From IMG/VR virus record IMGVR_UViG_2609459822_000006: a DNA stretch of 9,775 bases. One strand, given 5' to 3'. The notes under the pieces were generated by a model that saw only the letters and a list, made by a program, of their open reading frames with translations, ran no database searches and had not been told where the DNA came from. Shown in pieces: positions 1,021-9,407 of this stretch. Made by a program: the position numbers and the translations under genes. Source of the DNA: a virus. Taxonomy: Duplodnaviria > Heunggongvirae > Uroviricota > Caudoviricetes. The first letter of the stretch is position 1; the number at the start of each line of letters is the position of its first letter.

Positions 1021-1770
1021 TCAACTGATACTGATACCGGCTGTTGATTTCTTCATCACGACAACAAGAAGGTCGCTGATACTGGTCGTTGGCGTCCAGT
1101 TATTAGCACCATATGAAGAAACATTGAAAGTCAGGGTGACATGACCGTGTCCGGCAGGCATATCAATGACGGATGAAAATACCCTGCTGACATCCGTCGC
1201 GGGTTGCTGAAAGATTTCCTGTCCGTTCTTCAGCACCTGCAGCTTACAGGTTGAATACCAGTATGACTGTTGGTTGTTGCTGTTGAAGTTTTCATGCTTA
1301 CCACCGCGAAACAGAACGGGTGGGATTACTATCTGACGGTCAAAAGCCTGATCATCGTACACAGTGACCGTTATTGTACCGCTGGCATAACTGCCATTTC
1401 TCGGAAAGGCTTTTCCCACCGTTTTGACAATATCACCTTCAATCTGGTTGGCAGACAGTTTTCCCAGAATCCGACAGTTCTGGTTAATCGTGACATTATT
1501 GAGCGTCCCGGAGTTCGCATTCACGTTACCGCTGATATCGGCATTTTTCGCCGTCAGCCGCCCGTCCGGTGTCAGGGAAAATACCGGAGGATTGCCGCCG
1601 CTGGTAATGGTGGGAGCCGTCAGATACTTCAGGAACACTTCGTTCATGAATATCTGGTTGCCCTGCGCCACAAACATCGGCGTTTCATTCCCGTTTGCCG
1701 GGTCAATAAACGCGATACGGTTAGCGGCAACCAGGAACTGGCTCAGTTTGCCTTCCTCTGTATCCTCCAT
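1021..1770 (-). CDS. J: tail tip host-specificity protein J, C-terminal fragment (gene interrupted by a frameshift)
   Basis: The 249-aa track ORF starts [41 protein letters not shown]..., matching the lambda J C-terminal region. This frame stays open upstream to 1851 and its J homology (…[28 protein letters not shown]…) begins near 1833, so the track's ATG at 1770 is not a real start. Confidence 0.85.
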
Positions 1771-4442
1771 GCTGAGGCCAAGCCCCGCGACATAATGCCT
1801 GCCGTCTTCGGTCTGCTCAATTTTGACGCCCCACTCTGGTCTTCCAGTTTCTTATTGACGGTCTGCGTGATTTCATTGCTGACATCCGTAATGGACGTCC
1901 TGATTTCAGCCAGGTCAGGCGCAAGCTGACCGTTATCAATCTGCGTCCACAGCTCCTGAGCCAGATGGGTTTTCCCTATCTCTCCTTTGAAAAAATCCAG
2001 ATAGCCGGATGCATCATCACTCGGCTGGCCAACAGCCTCCACAAATGCCGATTTGCCAACGGTGTTCACACTGCGGATGTAAAAATAATAATCACGGCCC
2101 GGTTTGATATTGATACTGGCGGCTATCCAGTACAGCGCCGTGCCAAGATAGCGGGCTGTGGTTTCAACCTGCCTGATATCGGTAATCCGCGTTTCCGAGA
2201 ACCAGAACTCAAACTGTACCGTCGGATCATAAACGGCAAGATGCGGCGTGGCGGTGATCTGAAAATAGCCCGGAGTCAGCTCAATCCGCGACGGCGCTGA
2301 CGGTGCTGCAATCCGGAACGATACCGACGCCGGATCGCCCTGCTGTCCCCACGCATTTACCGCCCGGACTGTCAGCCTGTAGTTTCCCAGCGCCAGTTGC
2401 GTGAATCGGTATGTGGTTTCCGTCGTCCGGGCCGTGCTGACCAGCCGCTCACTGCCGTCATCCGCTGCCACGGTCAGGCGAAGCATAAAGCTCACACCCT
2501 TCACCACCTTCGGCGTATCCCAGCGCGCCAGTACCTGATATTCCCCGCTGTCTGCGGTGACTTCGGCAGTCAGGTGCTGCACCGCTGGCGGCGTGACACC
2601 ATTCACCGTGCCGCTCTGGTCGCCGTCAAAGTGCGCCCCGTTATCCACGATGGCCTCTTTCTCCGGTACATGCTGCACGGCGGTGATGGCATACGTGCCG
2701 TCGTCGTTCTCACGGATACTCACGCAGCGGAACAGGCGCTGGCGCAGCGTCGGCAGCTTAAGCCCCCACACGCTGTATTCAGCAACACCGTCAGGAACCC
2801 GGCTCACTTTTACCTTCACGCCGTCGGTGACGGACTGAACCTCCACGCTGACCGGACTCCCCTGCCCGTCAACCAGGCTTATCAGCGTGGTGCCGGAGGC
2901 TGGCAGCGTGATTTCACGGTCGAGCGTCAGTGTCCGCATCTGGCTGTTCCCCGCCAGCACGCGCCCGCCGATGCTGATGCCCGCATAGTCATCATCGCAG
3001 ATTTCAATGACATCGCCCGGTACATGGCGAAGCCCTTCTGCGCCCACGCTGAAGTCCACGGTCTGCGTTTCCAGCAGCTCCGTTTTAATCAGCCACAGCC
3101 CGGCGCGGTGCGCCTGCCCCCGGCTGGTACAGCCAAAGGCATCCATCTTCGTGACGTTACGACCGTAACGGAGAATGGCCTGCGTATCTTCAACAAGCTC
3201 TGTCGCCGTCTCCCAGCCGTTATTCGGGTCAATCCAGTTCACCTCAACGGCATTATGGCGGTCCTTCAGGGCGCTGAAGCTGTAGCGGAACGGCGCGCCA
3301 TCATCCGGCATCACCACATTACTGCGGTTATAGGTCCACACCTTATCCGACGGTCGGTCCTGCACGAACGTCAGCGTCTGCCCGTTCCATACCGGCATAC
3401 AGCGCATCGCCGAGCAGAAATCACTGAGCACATCCCACGCCTTACGCTGTGTGGTCAGGTACGCATTACAGGTGATGCGCGGCTCCGTGCCGCCAAAACC
3501 GTCCGGCACCGACTGCTCGCAATGCTGGCCGATGACATACAGCGCCCATTTGTCCACATCCGCCGCACCAAGACGTTTCCCCATGCCGTAGCGCGGATGG
3601 GTCAGCATATCCCACAGACACCAGGCCATGTTGTTGCTGTATGCTGGCTTAAACGTTCCGTCCCAGATACCGCTGTATTGCCGCGTCTGCGGGTTATAGT
3701 TCGACGGCACCTGCAGAATGCGTCCGCGAAGATGATAATTACGGCTCACCTGCTGGCTGCCGAACTGTTCCGAGTCCACCTGCACGCCGACCAGTGCCGT
3801 GTTCGGGTAGCACTGTTTCACATCGATGATTTCAGTGTATGACGACCAGAGCGTTTTGTTCTGCAGCTGGTCTGTGGTGCTGTCCGGCGTCATCCTGCGC
3901 ATCCGGATATTAAACGGGCGCGGCGGCAGGTTACCCACCACCACCGAGGCCAGATACTGCGAGGTGGTTTTGCCCTTAATGGTGATGTCTTTTTCCGTCA
4001 CCCAGCCACCGTTACGCTGTATCTGAACCAGCAGGCGGACTTCCGACGGATTCCGGTCCCCCTTTGAGGTGGTTTCCACCAGTGCCTGCACACCGAAGGT
4101 AAAGCGCAGACGGTCGATGTTTGCAGACGTGATGGTCCGGGTGATCGGCGTGTCGTATTTCACTTCCGTACCCAGCACCGTCTCGGATCCGGAGGATTCA
4201 AATCCCTCCGGCGGTGTCTGCTCCTGTTCACCTGCCCGGAACACCACCGTGACACCGGCGATGTTGGTATTCCCCTCACTGTCCAGCACCGGTGTACTGT
4301 TCAGCAGCACGCTTTTTAATCCATCCACCGGACCTTCAATCGGCCCTTCGCTGATGGCATCAATCACACTCAGTAACTGCGTGGATTTCAGGTTGTCCTT
4401 CGCTTCGCGCGGGGTATGCCCCTTACTGCTGCCTTTACCCAT
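1743..4442 (-). CDS. J: tail tip host-specificity protein J, N-terminal 899-aa fragment (gene interrupted by a frameshift)
   Basis: Starts [44 protein letters not shown]…, near-identical to lambda J over most of its length. The frame leaves J homology near 1833 and ends at a stop at 1743-1745 after a short out-of-frame tail (…[27 protein letters not shown]). The J locus 1021..4442 is 3422 nt, not a multiple of 3. Confidence 0.9.
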
Positions 4443-4502: not shown

Positions 4503-5174
4503 TCATCGACCAATCACCACAACCTGACCACCGTCCCCTTCATCTGCCGTGCTGATCTCCTGAGATACCACACGTGACCCCACGCGCATTTCACCATACA
4601 GAACAGGCATAACATTGCCCTGGGCAACCATGTTATCCAGTGAGGAGAAATAGGTGTTCTGCTTACCGTTATCCGTTGTCTGTGTGCGGGGAGTTCTGGC
4701 TTTCGGTGCCAGCATCTGAGCCACACCGCCGAGCACCATACTGGCACCGAGAGAAAACAGGATGCCGGTCATACCACCGGCCCCAATGGCTGCCCCCCAT
4801 GCTGCAAGGGTGGCTCCGGCGGTAAAGAATGATCCGGCAATGGCGGCTGCCCCCAGGACAATCTGGAATACGCCACCTGACTTGGCCCCGGCGACTCTAG
4901 GAACGATATGAATCACAGCGCCATCAGGCAGAGTCTCATGTAACTGCGCCGTTAACCCGGACGTGCTGACGTCCCGCCCGGCAATCCGTACCTGATACCA
5001 GCCGTCGCTCAGTTTCTGACGAAACGCAGGGAGCTGTGTGGCCAGCGCCCGGATGGCTTCGGCCCCCGTTTTCACACGAAGGTCGATGCGGCGACCAAAT
5101 CGTTGTAAATCCCCGTAAAGGCAGATGCGTGCCATGCCCGGTGACGCCAGAGGGAGTGTGTGCGTCGCTGCCAT
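4503..5174 (-). CDS. I: tail assembly protein I
   Basis: 223-aa ORF, the same length as lambda gpI, with a matching sequence from memory and a glycine/alanine-rich hydrophobic C-terminal half. Its 5' end overlaps the 3' end of K by 103 nt, as I recall for lambda. GAGAGG Shine-Dalgarno upstream. Confidence 0.92.
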   Translation of the reverse strand: MAATHTLPLASPGMARICLYGDLQRFGRRIDLRVKTGAEAIRALATQLPAFRQKLSDGWYQVRIAGRDVSTSGLTAQLHETLPDGAVIHIVPRVAGAKSGGVFQIVLGAAAIAGSFFTAGATLAAWGAAIGAGGMTGILFSLGASMVLGGVAQMLAPKARTPRTQTTDNGKQNTYFSSLDNMVAQGNVMPVLYGEMRVGSRVVSQEISTADEGDGGQVVVIGR

Positions 5175-5815
5175 TTGTCGGTATACCTCTCTCGTTTGCT
5201 CAGTTGTTCAGGAATATGGTGCAGCAGCTCGCCGTCGCCACAGTAAATTGCGGCGTGATTCGGCACCGATGAACCAAAACAGCACAGCAGCACATCGCCC
5301 GGCTGTGCCGCTGACAACGGCACCTGATACAGCCCCGTCGCCTCCAGATTATCCAGATAGAGATTCTGGCCGTTACGCCACCAGTCATCCTCACGATGAA
5401 AGTCCGGCATCTCAATCCCCGCCAGATGATAAGCATCCCGGAACAGGGTGTAACAGTCCGTCACACCGTGCTCAAAGCGCCGCCCGGTAAGATGCGGCAC
5501 ACAGCGGAACTTATGAATCGCCCCCCGGCAGACCAGCCACCACGGCAAATCACTCTGCACCTGCAGCCGCCGGTCGGCTTCACTCAGCCAGGGCAGACCA
5601 CCGGGATGGCTGTGCACCAGCGCGACTATCTCACCCTGCATTTCTGCCTGCAGCCAGTCTTCCGGCGACATCCGGAAATACGCCTCAGGCTCACCGGAGA
5701 TATTCACGCAGGGAAAATATCTTTCCCCCTCCGGCGTTCTCACCACGAAGCCGCACGACTCCGCTGGCGCACATCGCCGGGCGTGCGCCAGAATCGCTGA
5801 TTCTGTCTCTGTCAT
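5072..5815 (-). CDS. K: tail assembly protein K (MPN/JAMM domain plus NlpC/P60-like domain)
   Basis: 247-aa continuous ORF. JAMM-type motif HSHPGGLPWLSEAD (HxH-x7-S-xx-D) in the N-terminal half; a Cys (GVTDCYTLF) and His (NHAAIY) in the C-terminal half are consistent with an NlpC/P60 peptidase fold. The classical lambda annotation starts at the internal Met (MSPEDWLQ…, ATG at 5671-5669, giving 199 aa); which start is used cannot be settled from sequence. Confidence 0.9.
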   Translation of the reverse strand: MTETESAILAHARRCAPAESCGFVVRTPEGERYFPCVNISGEPEAYFRMSPEDWLQAEMQGEIVALVHSHPGGLPWLSEADRRLQVQSDLPWWLVCRGAIHKFRCVPHLTGRRFEHGVTDCYTLFRDAYHLAGIEMPDFHREDDWWRNGQNLYLDNLEATGLYQVPLSAAQPGDVLLCCFGSSVPNHAAIYCGDGELLHHIPEQLSKRERYTDKWQRRTHSLWRHRAWHASAFTGIYNDLVAASTFV

Positions 5816-5820
5816 GGGAT

Positions 5821-6519
5821 TTACTGCGAAAGTTTGTTAATGGAAAGGAAGCCGCCAAAGTTGCCGACGTTATTGCGAAACTTACAGCCGCTCAGGCATT
5901 TGCTGCATTTATCCTTCGTGATATCGGACGTCGGCTGGTCATATTCATCCGCGACAGCCGGACCGTGATAACCGCACTCATCACCGCGATAGGTCCAGGT
6001 GCAGGTGTTGGCCAGCATGATACGTCCCGGAAAAACAGCGCCATCCGTTTCCGTCGGCGTGGACAGTACAAAGGAGGCACTGACCGCGCTCAGTTCGCTG
6101 CACTGCTCGATGCGCCAGCGGCTGATCACCTCCTGCTCCGGATCGGCGTCGCTGTTTCCGTTGACGAAGTTCACCGCATCCAGAAAACGGGCGTAAACCT
6201 TACGCCTGACCACCGTTCCGCCGACCAGACTCTGCAGGTCTTCCGCCATCCCGGTGACCATACCGTACAGGTTAGAAACCGTCAGCGTGGGGCGCGTACT
6301 GGTGCCTTTGCCATTCAGTTCAAAACCGCTCCCCTGAATGGGATACGGCTGATACTGTCGCCCCTGCCAGGTGACCGGCTCACCTTTTTCGTTCTGCTCA
6401 TTACAGAAAAAATAACGTTCTCCACCGACCTCTGTCAGGTCGATTTCCCAGAGCACCAAGCTGGCCGACTGCTCCGCACGGGTGCATTCATTCAGTGTTT
6501 CCTGCCGGATATCCTGCAT
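5821..6519 (-). CDS. L: tail tip protein L
   Basis: 232-aa ORF, the same length as lambda gpL with a matching sequence from memory. Cys-rich C-terminus (…CTWTYRGDECGYHG…CSKCLSGCKF) consistent with the reported Fe-S cluster site of gpL. Its start overlaps the M stop (TGATG). Confidence 0.93.
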   Translation of the reverse strand: MQDIRQETLNECTRAEQSASLVLWEIDLTEVGGERYFFCNEQNEKGEPVTWQGRQYQPYPIQGSGFELNGKGTSTRPTLTVSNLYGMVTGMAEDLQSLVGGTVVRRKVYARFLDAVNFVNGNSDADPEQEVISRWRIEQCSELSAVSASFVLSTPTETDGAVFPGRIMLANTCTWTYRGDECGYHGPAVADEYDQPTSDITKDKCSKCLSGCKFRNNVGNFGGFLSINKLSQ

Positions 6520-6848
6520 CAGTTCACCACCTGTTCAAACTCTGCGCTGAACTCAACACGCAGCATACTGACCCGCGACGACCATTTTGCGCAGGTCACC
6601 TTTATCTGCCGCCACTCATAAGGCGGCGTCCACAGAAAGGATTTCCAGCCTCCGTGCTCTGCCAGAAACGACTCCAGTACCATGGCCTCCCAACGGGGGA
6701 CAGAAAGCGTCACGCTGTACGTTTTCAGGTTGGCATTCAGCCCGGCAGGCGCTCGCTGGGAATAGCCATCACCAAAGCGCACCTTCCTGACGGAAGGAGC
6801 CGAAGCCACATCCATACCGGGTTTCACTTTCCAGCGGAAGGTTTTCAT
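6519..6848 (-). CDS. M: tail tip protein M
   Basis: 109-aa ORF MKTFRWKVKPGMDVAS…, matching lambda gpM in length and sequence from memory. Its ATG overlaps the H stop (ATGA). Confidence 0.93.
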   Translation of the reverse strand: MKTFRWKVKPGMDVASAPSVRKVRFGDGYSQRAPAGLNANLKTYSVTLSVPRWEAMVLESFLAEHGGWKSFLWTPPYEWRQIKVTCAKWSSRVSMLRVEFSAEFEQVVN

Positions 6849-8833
6849 CGTCCACCTCCGGAGAACAGACCACCATCACGCATCTGCCCGGTCACAACAT
6901 CCATTGCCGCCTTACGGGCCATGTCATACACCGCCTTCAGAGCAGCCGGACCTATCTGCCCGTTCGTGCCGTCGTTATTAATCACCACATGGTTATTCTG
7001 CTCAAACTTCCCGGACGCCTGCGACCGGCTGTCAGCCAGACTGCCCGGTGTACCGACATAACCACCGGTGGCATAGCCGCGCATCAGCCGGTAGAGATTC
7101 CCCACGCCAATCCGGCTGGTTGCCTCCTTCGTGAAGACAAATTCACCACGGTGAACAATCCCCGCTGGCTCATATTTGCCGCCGGTTCCTGTGAATCCTC
7201 CGGTTGCAAAATGGAATTTCGCCGCAGCGGCCTGAATGGCTGTACCGCCTGACGCGGATGCGCCGCCACCAACAGCCCCGCCAATGGCGCTGCCGATACT
7301 CCCGACAATCCCCACCATTGCCTGCTTAAGCAGAATTTCTGTCATCATGGACAGCACGGATCGGGTGAAGCTGCGCCAGTTTTGTTCACTGCCGGTCAGC
7401 ATCGCCGCCATATTCTGTGCAATACCATCAAAGGTCTGCGTGGCTGCACTTTTAACCTGCGACATACTGTCCGTGGCGCTCTCTTCCCACTCACTCCAGC
7501 CGGACTTCAGGCCTGCCATCCAGTTCCCGCGAAGCTGGTCTTCAGCCGCCCAGGTCTTTTTCTGCTCTGACATGACGTTATTCAGCGCCAGCGGATTATC
7601 GCCATACTGTTCCTTCAGGCGCTGTTCCGTGGCTTCCCGTTCTGCCTGCCGGTCAGTCAGCCCCCGGCTTTTCGCATCAATGGCGGCCCGTTTTGCCCGT
7701 TGCTGCTGTGCGAATTTATCCGCCTGCTGCGCCAGCGCGTTCAGGCGCTCCTGATAGGTGACCTTGTCGCCAAGTGCAGCCAGCTGGCGTTTGTACTCCA
7801 GCGTCTCATCTTTATGCGCCAGCAGGGATTTCTCCTGTGCAGACAGCTGGCGACGTTGCGCCGCCTCCTCCAGTACCGCGAACTGACTCTCCGCCTTCCA
7901 CAAATCCCGGCGCTGCTGGCTGATTTTCTCATTCGCTCCGGCATGCTTCTCCAGCGTCCGGAGTTCTGCCTGAAGCGTCAGCAGGGCAGCATGAGCACTG
8001 TCTTCCTGACGATCGCCCGCAGACACCTTCACGCCGGACTGTTTCGGCTTTTTCAGCGTCGCTTCATAATCCTTTTTCGCCGCCGCCATCAGCGTGTTGT
8101 AATCCGCCTGCAGGATTTTCCCGTCTTTCAGTGCCTTGTTCAGTTCTTCCTGACGGGCGGTATATTTCTCCAGCGGCGTCTGCAGCCGTTCGTAAGCCTT
8201 CTGCGCCTCTTCGGTATATTTCAGCCGTGACGCTTCGGTATCGCTCTGCTGCTGCGCATTTTTGTCCTGTTGAGTCTGCTGCTCAGCCTTCTTTCGGGCG
8301 GCTTCAAGCGCAAGACGGGCCTTTTCACGATCATCCCAGTAACGCGCCCGCGCTTCATCGTTAACAAAATAATCATCCTTGCGCAGATTCCAGATGTCGT
8401 CTGCTTTCTTAAACGCAGCCTCTGCCTTAATCAGCATCTCCTGCGCGGTATCAGGACGACCAATATCCAGCACCGCATCCCACATGGATTTGAATGCCCG
8501 CGCTGTCCTGTCTGCCCAGGTCTCCAGCGTGCCCATGTTCTCTTTCAGGCGGCGGGTCTGGTCATCAAACCCTTTCGTTGCGGCCTCGTTCGCCGCCTGC
8601 AATGCCCCGGTTTCATCGCCGGAACGCTGCAACTGAGCAACATACGCAATCTGCTCCGCCGTCACGTTATGGAACTGGCTTGCCATCGCCGTCAGCCCCG
8701 ACGTCGGGTCAGTGGTCAGCTTCCCGAAGGCTTCAGCGACCTTGTCCACCTCCACGCCGGATACAGAGGAGAAACGCGCCACACTCTGGCTGATGGACGC
8801 AATCTGATCACCACCACGCACACCGGCATTCAC
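6845..8833 (-). CDS. H: tail tape measure protein H, C-terminal fragment (gene interrupted by a frameshift)
   Basis: Translation …NAGVRGGDQIASISQSVARFSS…GGLFSGGGR matches lambda gpH. The track start at 8833 is a GTG picked by the ORF caller, not a real start; the frame is open upstream to 8869 and H homology in this frame begins at the codon at 8842-8840 (SALVNAG…). Confidence 0.9.
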   Translation of the reverse strand: MNAGVRGGDQIASISQSVARFSSVSGVEVDKVAEAFGKLTTDPTSGLTAMASQFHNVTAEQIAYVAQLQRSGDETGALQAANEAATKGFDDQTRRLKENMGTLETWADRTARAFKSMWDAVLDIGRPDTAQEMLIKAEAAFKKADDIWNLRKDDYFVNDEARARYWDDREKARLALEAARKKAEQQTQQDKNAQQQSDTEASRLKYTEEAQKAYERLQTPLEKYTARQEELNKALKDGKILQADYNTLMAAAKKDYEATLKKPKQSGVKVSAGDRQEDSAHAALLTLQAELRTLEKHAGANEKISQQRRDLWKAESQFAVLEEAAQRRQLSAQEKSLLAHKDETLEYKRQLAALGDKVTYQERLNALAQQADKFAQQQRAKRAAIDAKSRGLTDRQAEREATEQRLKEQYGDNPLALNNVMSEQKKTWAAEDQLRGNWMAGLKSGWSEWEESATDSMSQVKSAATQTFDGIAQNMAAMLTGSEQNWRSFTRSVLSMMTEILLKQAMVGIVGSIGSAIGGAVGGGASASGGTAIQAAAAKFHFATGGFTGTGGKYEPAGIVHRGEFVFTKEATSRIGVGNLYRLMRGYATGGYVGTPGSLADSRSQASGKFEQNNHVVINNDGTNGQIGPAALKAVYDMARKAAMDVVTGQMRDGGLFSGGGR

Positions 8834-9407
8834 CAGTGCGCTGCAGTGACTCGCTGGTCTGGTTAAACGTCAGCCCTGCGGCCTGTCCGGCTCTGGAGAG
8901 CGTCAGCATGCGATCGGCAGTCAGTCCGGACTGATTACCGGAAAGAACCAGGGTTTTATTAAACGCTGAAAGCGTGGAATCTCCCTGGTACCAGGCGTAC
9001 ACCAGCGCACCGGTCGCCACCGCCAGCGAGGTGGCCCCCACCATCGGCAGGGTGATCGCACCGGCAAGCCCCCTGAACATGGGGATCATCCCGCCGAAGG
9101 AGTCCTTCACCTGACCGCCCTGTTGCAGCAGGATCAGCCAGGGATTCTGACCACCTGCAAGCTGCGTGGCCACGTCGGTGAACTGTGCAGGCAGCATACG
9201 CATGGCAGCTTTATACTGCCCGACGGAAATCCCCGCTTTCTGTGCAGCCAGCGCCTGTCGGCTCAGCGACTGTTCAACGACTGCCGCTGTTTTTTTCGCA
9301 TCACTTTCCGTACCGGAAAAATGACGCCTGACTCTGGCCATCTGCTCGTCAAATCTGGCCGCATCCAGACTTAAATCAACGACCAGATCGCCTACCGGTT
9401 CAGCCAT
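8808..9407 (-). CDS. H: tail tape measure protein H, N-terminal fragment (gene interrupted by a frameshift)
   Basis: MAEPVGDLVVDLSLDAARFDEQMARVRRHFSGTESDAKK… matches the lambda gpH N-terminus from memory. AGGAGG Shine-Dalgarno lies 7 nt upstream of the ATG. The frame ends …QTSESLQRTGECRCAWW*, leaving H homology right after QTSESL. The H locus 6845..9407 is 2563 nt, one more than a multiple of 3. Confidence 0.9.
   Translation of the reverse strand: MAEPVGDLVVDLSLDAARFDEQMARVRRHFSGTESDAKKTAAVVEQSLSRQALAAQKAGISVGQYKAAMRMLPAQFTDVATQLAGGQNPWLILLQQGGQVKDSFGGMIPMFRGLAGAITLPMVGATSLAVATGALVYAWYQGDSTLSAFNKTLVLSGNQSGLTADRMLTLSRAGQAAGLTFNQTSESLQRTGECRCAWW

Follow-up and report, generated by a model that had tools for sequence, protein, structure and literature searches.

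The frameshift that splits the tape measure gene H of a lambdoid prophage in a draft Escherichia coli genome most likely arose from a chimeric consensus of paralogous prophages, that is, as an assembly artefact; we put the probability of this reading at about 60%. The extra base behind it repeats a SNP column at a point where the sequence switches between paralog alleles, which points to a chimeric or collapsed consensus and not to a read error. At best, the H locus is an ordinary dead prophage gene.

The stretch analyzed here (the window) is the entire contig JHDK01000050.1 (9,775 bp) of the assembly GCA_000601355.1, which represents E. coli strain 1-110-08_S4_C1 (ST38; read sample SRS568248, Table S1 of PMC6222053). 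This 2014 draft of 5.50 Mb in 159 contigs is based on HiSeq 100-bp reads and was assembled with MaSuRCA 2.3.2, which builds super-reads before a Celera overlap-consensus step. The gene order of the contig, T-H-M-L-K-I-J-lom-stf, is that of lambda and of E. coli prophages, with intact M, L, K, I and lom genes. In each of the finished genomes closest over the tail module, there are two or three lambdoid tail modules, paralogs of one another; we refer to the types found in the genomes most similar across the module as A, B and C. For instance, KKa019 contains A and B, and WP5-S18-ESBL-07 contains A, B and C together. The parents A, B and C used in the following are proxies from other strains, and it is from the genomes of these strains that we infer the presence of all three copies in the source strain itself. 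At both ends of the contig, A and B differ little or not at all, with 117 nt of perfect A/B identity at the T end, and the contig is thus repeat-bounded. A replicate assembly was sought from a clonal sibling, but the colonies S4_C2 and S4_C3 belong to a different clone, ST10.

The H locus is 96.4% identical to lambda H at the nucleotide level across 100% of its length. It shares with lambda gpH (NP_040595.1, 853 aa) the position between T and M in a tail module of lambda order (G/T chaperone genes on one side, M-L-K-I-J on the other), the Pfam families (precomputed matches to TMP_2, PF06791, and Tape_meas_lam_C, PF09718, on the two called products) and, once one base is removed, the length. 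Lambda gpH is uninterrupted, whereas H in the contig is broken after residue 188, and its residues 136–200 derive from allele types C and B. Instead of a single ORF of about 853 codons, as found for the H homologs of all relatives, the locus holds two (Table 1): the N-terminal one ends in ...LTFNQTSESLQRTGECRCAWW and a stop codon, and the C-terminal frame reads ...SALVNAGVRGGDQIASISQ... on to the normal gpH C-terminus. Deletion of one base at the lesion restores an uninterrupted 853-aa ORF, the product of which differs from lambda gpH at 24 of 853 residues and from the KKa019 protein at 12. The sequence-only reading had described a single-base frameshift in a locus of lambda length plus one base, and both statements hold: the sole net indel relative to lambda and KKa019 is one extra base at 8843/8844, and the remaining gaps, at 8960–8967, sum to zero within a divergent patch.

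Table 1. Coordinates of the genes, allele tracts and junctions in the window
Feature	Position	Strand	Details
gpJ tail-tip locus	1021..4442	-	3422 nt; ORFs of 899 aa and 249 aa
GTG microhomology at the B-to-A join that breaks the J frame	1832..1834	-	From alignment
B-type patch (1159-aa-type J) in A-type J	1835..2191	-	111 consecutive B-specific sites
Genes M, L, K, I	4503..6848	-	Intact; A/B patchwork at the DNA level
gpH-type tail tape measure locus	6845..9407	-	2563 nt; lambda H, 2562 nt
C-terminal H frame	6845..8833	-	662-aa ORF from GTG 8833; deposited as a 658-aa CDS from GTG 8821
N-terminal H fragment	8808..9407	-	199 aa: 188 gpH residues and 11 out-of-frame residues, then TGA
B/C-type tract	8808..8831	-	10 sites; happens to hold the TGA that ends the shifted H frame
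Very short A-type tract directly 3' of the H lesion	8836..8842	-	At most 12 nt; four A-specific sites
H lesion	8843..8844	-	Doublet G(8844)C(8843), single base in every relative; from alignments
C-type (SK1144-type) patch in otherwise A-type H	8880..9001	-	About 30 consecutive C-specific sites

The N-terminal H product (EYE09093.1) is recorded in its exact form only on the source contig, as is, among about 15 billion proteins, the exact 658-aa C-terminal product; the repaired 853-aa protein is absent by exact sequence from about 15 billion proteins. A large homology search returned only representatives of 90%-identity clusters, among which the allele is not separable. In other drafts, many ‘partial’ tape measure fragments stop at residues 188–210, right at the lesion; this sample is biased by length clustering and offers a hint only.

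At the lesion, lambda reads TCACTCAGC and the contig TCACTGCAGC. Relative to lambda, where the sequence is GAGTCACTCAGCGCACTGGTT and the Leu codon is CTC, the extra base is the G at 8844; relative to alleles with CTG, it is the C at 8843. Removal of either base yields the same repaired protein. The earlier proposal of an extra C at about 8843 is therefore correct with respect to the CTG-bearing alleles and incorrect with respect to lambda, the sequence of which had been given, wrongly, as ctgagc. In this SNP column, C is the base of type A and of lambda and G that of types B and C; the contig holds both (GC), within TCACTGCAGCGC, flanked by C-type and B-type alleles and outside any homopolymer. 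The 25-mer bearing the insertion has no match in GTDB representative genomes or IMG/VR, and the lesion sequence has none of 95% or better in 5,426 finished E. coli genomes. A gapped pattern matched neither the insertion nor the repaired progenitor allele in JGI metagenomes, and the finished E. coli genomes likewise lack the intact progenitor allele (…TCACTSAGCGCACTGGTGAATGCC…).

The lesion lies within a patchwork of alleles that extends along the contig. In H, the C-type patch upstream of the lesion is identical to SK1144 over its whole stretch, and the minute A-type tract next to the extra base is bordered by B/C-type sites at 8844 and 8831. With parent C included, all variable sites in the first 907 nt of H match a parent, the extra base excepted. 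Outside the H patch, the first 7.4 kb of the contig contain 314 A-type, 86 B-type and just 3 private sites, with 49 switches between parents; by comparison, 84 private sites are seen in the lambda control, and L006, a natural relative, shows 399 A-type sites to 1 B-type site. About 13 of the parent switches are each resolved within <21 nt, and the best parent shifts even at the neighboring bases 8681, 8680 and 8679. In the 5,426 finished genomes, the best matches reach 97.6% for H, 99.2% for the N-terminus of J and 98.0% for M–I, the last being pure A, and none equals the patchwork of the contig. The pure A tail module, by contrast, is identical in dozens of finished genomes. The chimeric M protein is recorded only on the source contig, and neither the H nor the J junction, nor the patchwork, is present in any other public assembly searched. 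Two sets of candidates for a closer parent were rejected: L006, a 3.8-Mb long-read contig that shares the 249-aa C-terminal fragment of J, is pure A-type and has a different J indel of its own, and L015 and L017–L025, which share the K or I protein of the contig, do not exceed prophage A in identity.

A second lesion of the contig also lies at an allele boundary. A frameshift in J had been noted before, and it is real, yet not a simple one: two J allele types are joined there out of frame. These types are 3399 or 3480 nt long, and the locus of the contig, 23 nt longer than A, lacks 61 nt of B-type sequence at the junction, which reads CCAGAGTGGGGCGTC. Within the B-type patch, positions 1838–2030 are 100% identical to the J of the second prophage in KKa019 and about 45 other finished genomes. 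The junction itself pairs non-homologous positions, its k-mers are absent from both proxy parents, and it is spanned in one piece by no finished genome; likewise, the N-terminal J fragment is recorded only on the source contig. The J of prophage C was considered as a route to assembly-graph branch points at this junction and dismissed, as it is unrelated in that segment. Both lesions of the contig thus sit on parent switches, from B/C-type to A-type in H and from B to A in J.

To account for these lesions, the sequence-only reading had named systematic sequencing error or a decaying, tail-defective prophage, which broadly brackets the explanations still alive, although each of the two needs to be changed. 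A base-calling or systematic sequencing error is unlikely, given Illumina data, a site without homopolymer and an extra base that duplicates a SNP column at an allele switch. We consider it most probable that two or three near-identical lambdoid tail modules were merged from 100-bp reads into one chimeric or collapsed consensus contig. Such a consensus would track type A wherever divergence between the copies prevents merging and would take up B- and C-type alleles where they are 94–99% alike. Nucleotide 564 of H would be a G/C SNP between the copies, situated exactly where the consensus changes parent, and both alleles of this SNP would have been placed in adjacent columns rather than in one, yielding CTG plus C and the +1 frameshift. 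The real genome would then contain intact tape measure genes, and we infer that it was the consensus step, not the DNA, that created the junctions.

This reading is supported by the alternation of parent alleles with few private sites and no match elsewhere, as well as by the repeat-bounded contig, the MaSuRCA/Celera assembler and the flawless repaired H. Judged from sequence alone, the contig resembles the collapsed repeats and merged haplotypes of short-read overlap-consensus assemblies in being repeat-bounded, with alternating alleles, few private sites and an indel at a variant column where both alleles are kept. A pure de Bruijn path chimera does not suffice as the sole mechanism, with about 13 switches resolved within <21 nt and lesion k-mers that are absent from the proxy parents; because of these fine switches, an artefact would require column-wise mixing in the consensus. 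The J junction fits less well. Merged copies do not typically yield a join between non-homologous positions through a microhomology of 3 nt. Nor do k-mer and overlap assemblers, as a rule, make up joins of this kind, and this one may therefore exist in the reads. The well-documented existence of real short mosaics between co-resident lambdoid prophages also counts against an artefact (De Paepe et al., 2014; PMC3945230).

The strongest competitor, which we regard as a real possibility and the clearly less probable one, is that the lesions are genuine: prophage A would have exchanged many short segments with the co-resident prophages B and C, through homeologous recombination or template switching, for which phage Rad52-like recombinases are a possible driver, and two imprecise junctions would have broken H (by +1) and J (by an out-of-frame join at GTG). 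Both the initiation and the measurement of the tail need a full-length tape measure protein, and adsorption to the host needs intact J; with both genes broken, the prophage would thus be tail-defective. A real H lesion would be a side effect of exchange between co-resident prophages and not of slow erosion. The decay by accumulated mutations proposed earlier is not seen: H is clean minus one base, its neighbors M, L, K, I and lom are undamaged, and the contig contains no further erosion, such as extra stops, indels or damaged neighboring genes, besides the J junction.

Natural mosaicism offers a precedent for such exchanges. Mosaics among temperate and defective lambdoid prophages are common, have median lengths of 404–494 bp and arise even if what they yield is non-viable (De Paepe et al., 2014; PMC3945230). 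As in the mosaics attributed to Rad52-like recombinases in that study, the contig combines co-resident lambdoid donor types, has two large patches of up to a few hundred nucleotides (about 150 nt in H and 356 nt in J, the same order as the published ones) and one J border in short identity. The J patch is entered through 43 nt of identity and left through the 3-nt microhomology, borders that are more like homology-facilitated illegitimate recombination than an assembler join, and the occurrence of two lesions in one module, each at the edge of a patch, is consistent with a single recombination episode. Against this stand the scale and the uniqueness of the pattern. About 50 parent switches would be needed, with tracts of 12 nt or less and essentially no private substitutions, far more numerous and finer than in the published mosaics with their medians of 400–500 bp (PMC3945230), and the junctions of the contig break the frame and are shared with no other genome. 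The lesions are absent from every other assembly, despite heavy sampling of relatives of the tail module, and two alleles of one SNP side by side are not a normal outcome of recombination. We think it a real possibility, though less likely than not, that the junctions record a burst of homeologous exchange or template switching, with about 50 fine-scale switches within 8 kb, among three co-resident prophages in one commensal ST38 cell line, and that its imprecise joints, the SNP doublet kept in H and the GTG join in J, killed the tail module.

An isolated event apart from the patchwork, whether a spontaneous 1-nt insertion into a rare but otherwise natural H allele or a random error of base calling or consensus, is highly improbable. 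Single-base indels are the commonest way in which prophage genes are inactivated, and the repaired H allele is otherwise intact. Yet the extra base exactly matches the other allele of the SNP next to it and coincides with a parent switch, as does the second lesion, in J; with switch intervals covering about 25% of the sequence, both lesions would fall within them by chance with a probability of about 0.06, even before the exact boundary base is required. Moreover, Illumina consensus indel errors are rare at non-homopolymer sites such as this one, and the intact form of the H allele is missing among about 15 billion proteins.

Finally, we reject a programmed +1 ribosomal frameshift, or other recoding, that would yield full-length gpH: lambda-type tail operons do use programmed frameshifting in the tail-assembly gene region, yet the −1 frameshift of lambda G/GT, which is conserved and has a slippery sequence, lies in another gene upstream of the contig, whereas the H insertion is found in no other sequence of the collections searched, which comprised 5,426 finished genomes, the GTDB representatives, IMG/VR and the JGI metagenomes. 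In every relative, H is a single ORF, and inspection of the 60-nt +1 overlap (8869–8808) revealed no shift-prone codon combined with a stop codon or a rare codon and with a stimulator at an appropriate distance.

For the study of prophages, these results mean that frameshifted tail genes in short-read drafts of E. coli with multiple lambdoid prophages should not be read as prophage decay, or as the mark of a defective prophage, without confirmation at the level of reads or by long reads. In the present case, the deposited proteins EYE09092.1, EYE09093.1, EYE09086.1 and EYE09087.1 spread the split genes into protein databases. If the lesions are real after all, they would provide a small example of how recombination between co-resident prophages inactivates a tail module, an idea that is already accepted, and a burst of switches as dense as the one outlined above would capture error-prone recombination between prophages at work as one path to prophage domestication.

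The tape measure gene H of the window is split by one extra base, as the sequence-only reading had proposed. The open reading frames and alignments to lambda and to KKa019, the finished E. coli genome with the closest prophage, agree on this, as they do on a locus of lambda's length plus one base. The single net indel lies at 8843/8844, within one base of the position first suggested; the lambda sequence first given for this site, ctgagc, did not hold, as lambda reads GAGTCACTCAGCGC and the window GAGTCACTGCAGCGC. Upon removal of the base, a clean 853-aa ORF results, with 24 differences from gpH, the lambda tape measure product. The extra base also creates a CTGCAG (PstI-type) site (8841–8846), which is found in none of the compared alleles and is probably incidental.

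Coordinates of the tail module, its split genes and the allele tracts around the extra base
Feature	Position	Strand	Description
Tail module, lambda order		minus	T (partial), H, M, L, K, I, J, lom, stf start
H locus	6845-9407	minus	2563 nt; 96.4% identical to lambda H (2562 nt)
N-terminal H ORF	8808-9407	minus	199 aa, ending ...LTFNQTSESLQRTGECRCAWW*
C-terminal H ORF	6845-8833	minus	662 aa; remainder of gpH, ...SALVNAGVRGGDQIASISQ...
J locus	1021-4442	minus	junction at 1832-1835
Tract	9001-8880	minus	C type
Tract	8858-8853	minus	A/B type
Site	8844	minus	B/C type
Tract	8842-8836	minus	A type
Tract	8831-8808	minus	B/C type
Tract	8807 onward	minus	A type

The lesion was sought widely. The 25-mer with the insertion has no match in GTDB representative genomes or IMG/VR, a gapped pattern that can also catch a repaired allele has none in JGI metagenomes, and none of the finished E. 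coli genomes has a match of 95% or more to the 82 nt that surround the lesion. Likewise, the window's contig is the single one on record with the H fragments of 199 and 658 aa, and a repaired allele of 853 aa is not among some 15 billion proteins. Many ‘partial’ N-terminal tape measure fragments from other E. coli drafts (P0002–P0014) stop at residues 188–210, at or just past ...TSESL, the site of the window's frameshift; in a fragment sample biased by length-based cluster selection, this suggests a habitual contig break where tape measure alleles diverge. Protein P0020, a 1307-aa ‘tape measure protein [Trichophyton mentagrophytes]’ 97% identical to the window's H, also has major-tail (V), G and T domains and looks like lambda-type DNA that contaminated a fungal assembly and was fused into one gene model. 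‘Campylobacter phage CJLB-4’ (MW057783.1; 48,361 bp), with lambda-style gene names and an H match equal to lambda's (96.4%, 4222 bits), probably represents lambda, or lambda contamination, deposited under the name of a different host, and one ‘Xanthomonas’ record appears likewise among the H matches.

The window is the entire contig JHDK01000050.1 (9,775 bp) of the draft GCA_000601355.1, from E. coli 1-110-08_S4_C1. This isolate (ST38, phylogroup D, O86:H18) was obtained in a study on children in Tanzania and was assembled from HiSeq 100-bp reads with MaSuRCA 2.3.2 into 159 contigs totaling 5.50 Mb (PMC6222053). As the other two colonies of the same stool are ST10, the clone is represented by one assembly, without a replicate.

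The finished genomes that best match the tail module hold more than one such lambdoid module. KKa019 carries a type A prophage at 2.35 Mb (H 853 aa, J 1132 aa) and a type B prophage at the bio locus (tape measure protein 859 aa, J 1159 aa), and the finished genome WP5-S18-ESBL-07 carries both types and a third, C. When every informative site in the first 7.4 kb, with the H patch left out, was classified by type, the window showed 314 A-type, 86 B-type and just 3 private sites, with 49 switches. Lambda, classified likewise, has 84 private sites, and the natural relative L006, from a long-read assembly, has 399 A-type sites versus 1 B-type site. With type C included, at least one parent is matched at all variable sites of H up to nt 907, except for the extra base. 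At this column, type A has a C and types B and C a G, while the window has G and then C; the amino acid differences of H from KKa019 concentrate around it, at residues 136–200. Pure type A is identical in dozens of finished genomes, and the window's best matches among finished genomes are all pure A, at 97.6% for H, 98.0% for M–I and 99.2% for the J N-terminus. In the gene-position index, no other contig encodes the window's M protein, an A/B chimera; the K protein is shared with a single Logan contig, whose DNA is only 97.9% identical. Loci sharing the window's I protein were considered as closer parents and ruled out, being no nearer than A.

K itself (5072–5815, site ~5681) starts 5 nt past L and encodes 247 aa with Prok-JAB and NLPC_P60 domains, a form common to the window, KKa019 and most E. 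coli prophages. The lambda reference has one base fewer (L001, 11087–11234) and an annotated 199-aa K after a 149-nt gap; since L006 and L025, another compared locus, share this short form, it is a natural variant and not a lambda sequencing error.

The J frame, which the first reading took to carry a second frameshift, is indeed broken, by an inter-allele junction and not by a point indel. J is A-type until about 2235, passes into B-type via 43 nt of identity and is then 100% B-type over a 356-nt patch (2191–1835), a sequence that KKa019 and about 45 more genomes carry unchanged in J of their second prophage. It returns to A at a microhomology, GTG (1834–1832); 61 nt of donor B are omitted at this join, the locus exceeds backbone A by 23 nt, and the reading frame is broken. 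No finished genome spans this junction. J is also split (899 + 249 aa) in L006, a pure A-type prophage from an independent long-read metagenome assembly (ENA ERZ27273242 contig_1178_polypolish), there by a single extra C relative to the window at about 9981, a different cause and possibly a long-read indel error.

The simplest single cause of all these features would be a short-read overlap-consensus assembly in which two or three paralogous tail modules were collapsed, or chimerically joined, into one consensus. When near-identical copies are merged, the consensus turns into an allele mosaic with indel errors at variant columns. Such a consensus would account for a repeat-bounded contig (both ends fall in stretches identical or nearly identical between A and B), for some 50 switches between parents and a near absence of private sites, for tracts of only a few bases, and for two frame-breaking lesions that both sit at switches, one keeping both SNP alleles. 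It would also account for an H that is flawless apart from the extra base, and for a patchwork and lesions missing from all other assemblies searched. We put its probability at about 0.6 and no higher, because the J junction, a 3-nt microhomology at non-homologous positions, gives k-mers found in neither parent, and because about 13 switches are spaced less than 21 nt apart. This spacing rules out a k-mer path chimera; the artefact would instead presuppose a putative step of column-wise mixing in the consensus, or of forced merging of contigs.

Genuine homeologous exchange between co-resident prophages, with imprecise joints, is credible, though less probable than the artefact: lambdoid prophages that share a host commonly do form short mosaics with each other, even where the outcome is non-viable (PMC3945230). 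A point insertion with no link to the patchwork, or a random read error, is very unlikely, as the extra base coincides exactly with a SNP at a switch. Programmed frameshifting is ruled out by an arrangement conserved in none of the collections searched and a 60-nt frame overlap without a shift-prone motif. The initial choice between sequencing error and a decaying prophage roughly brackets the explanations, but needs reframing.

Under either reading, consensus artefact or genuine exchange, the finding is an ordinary one. In lambda, the tail has neither an initiator nor a length ruler without full-length gpH, and adsorption is absent without J. Consequently, if the lesions are real, the prophage would be tail-defective.
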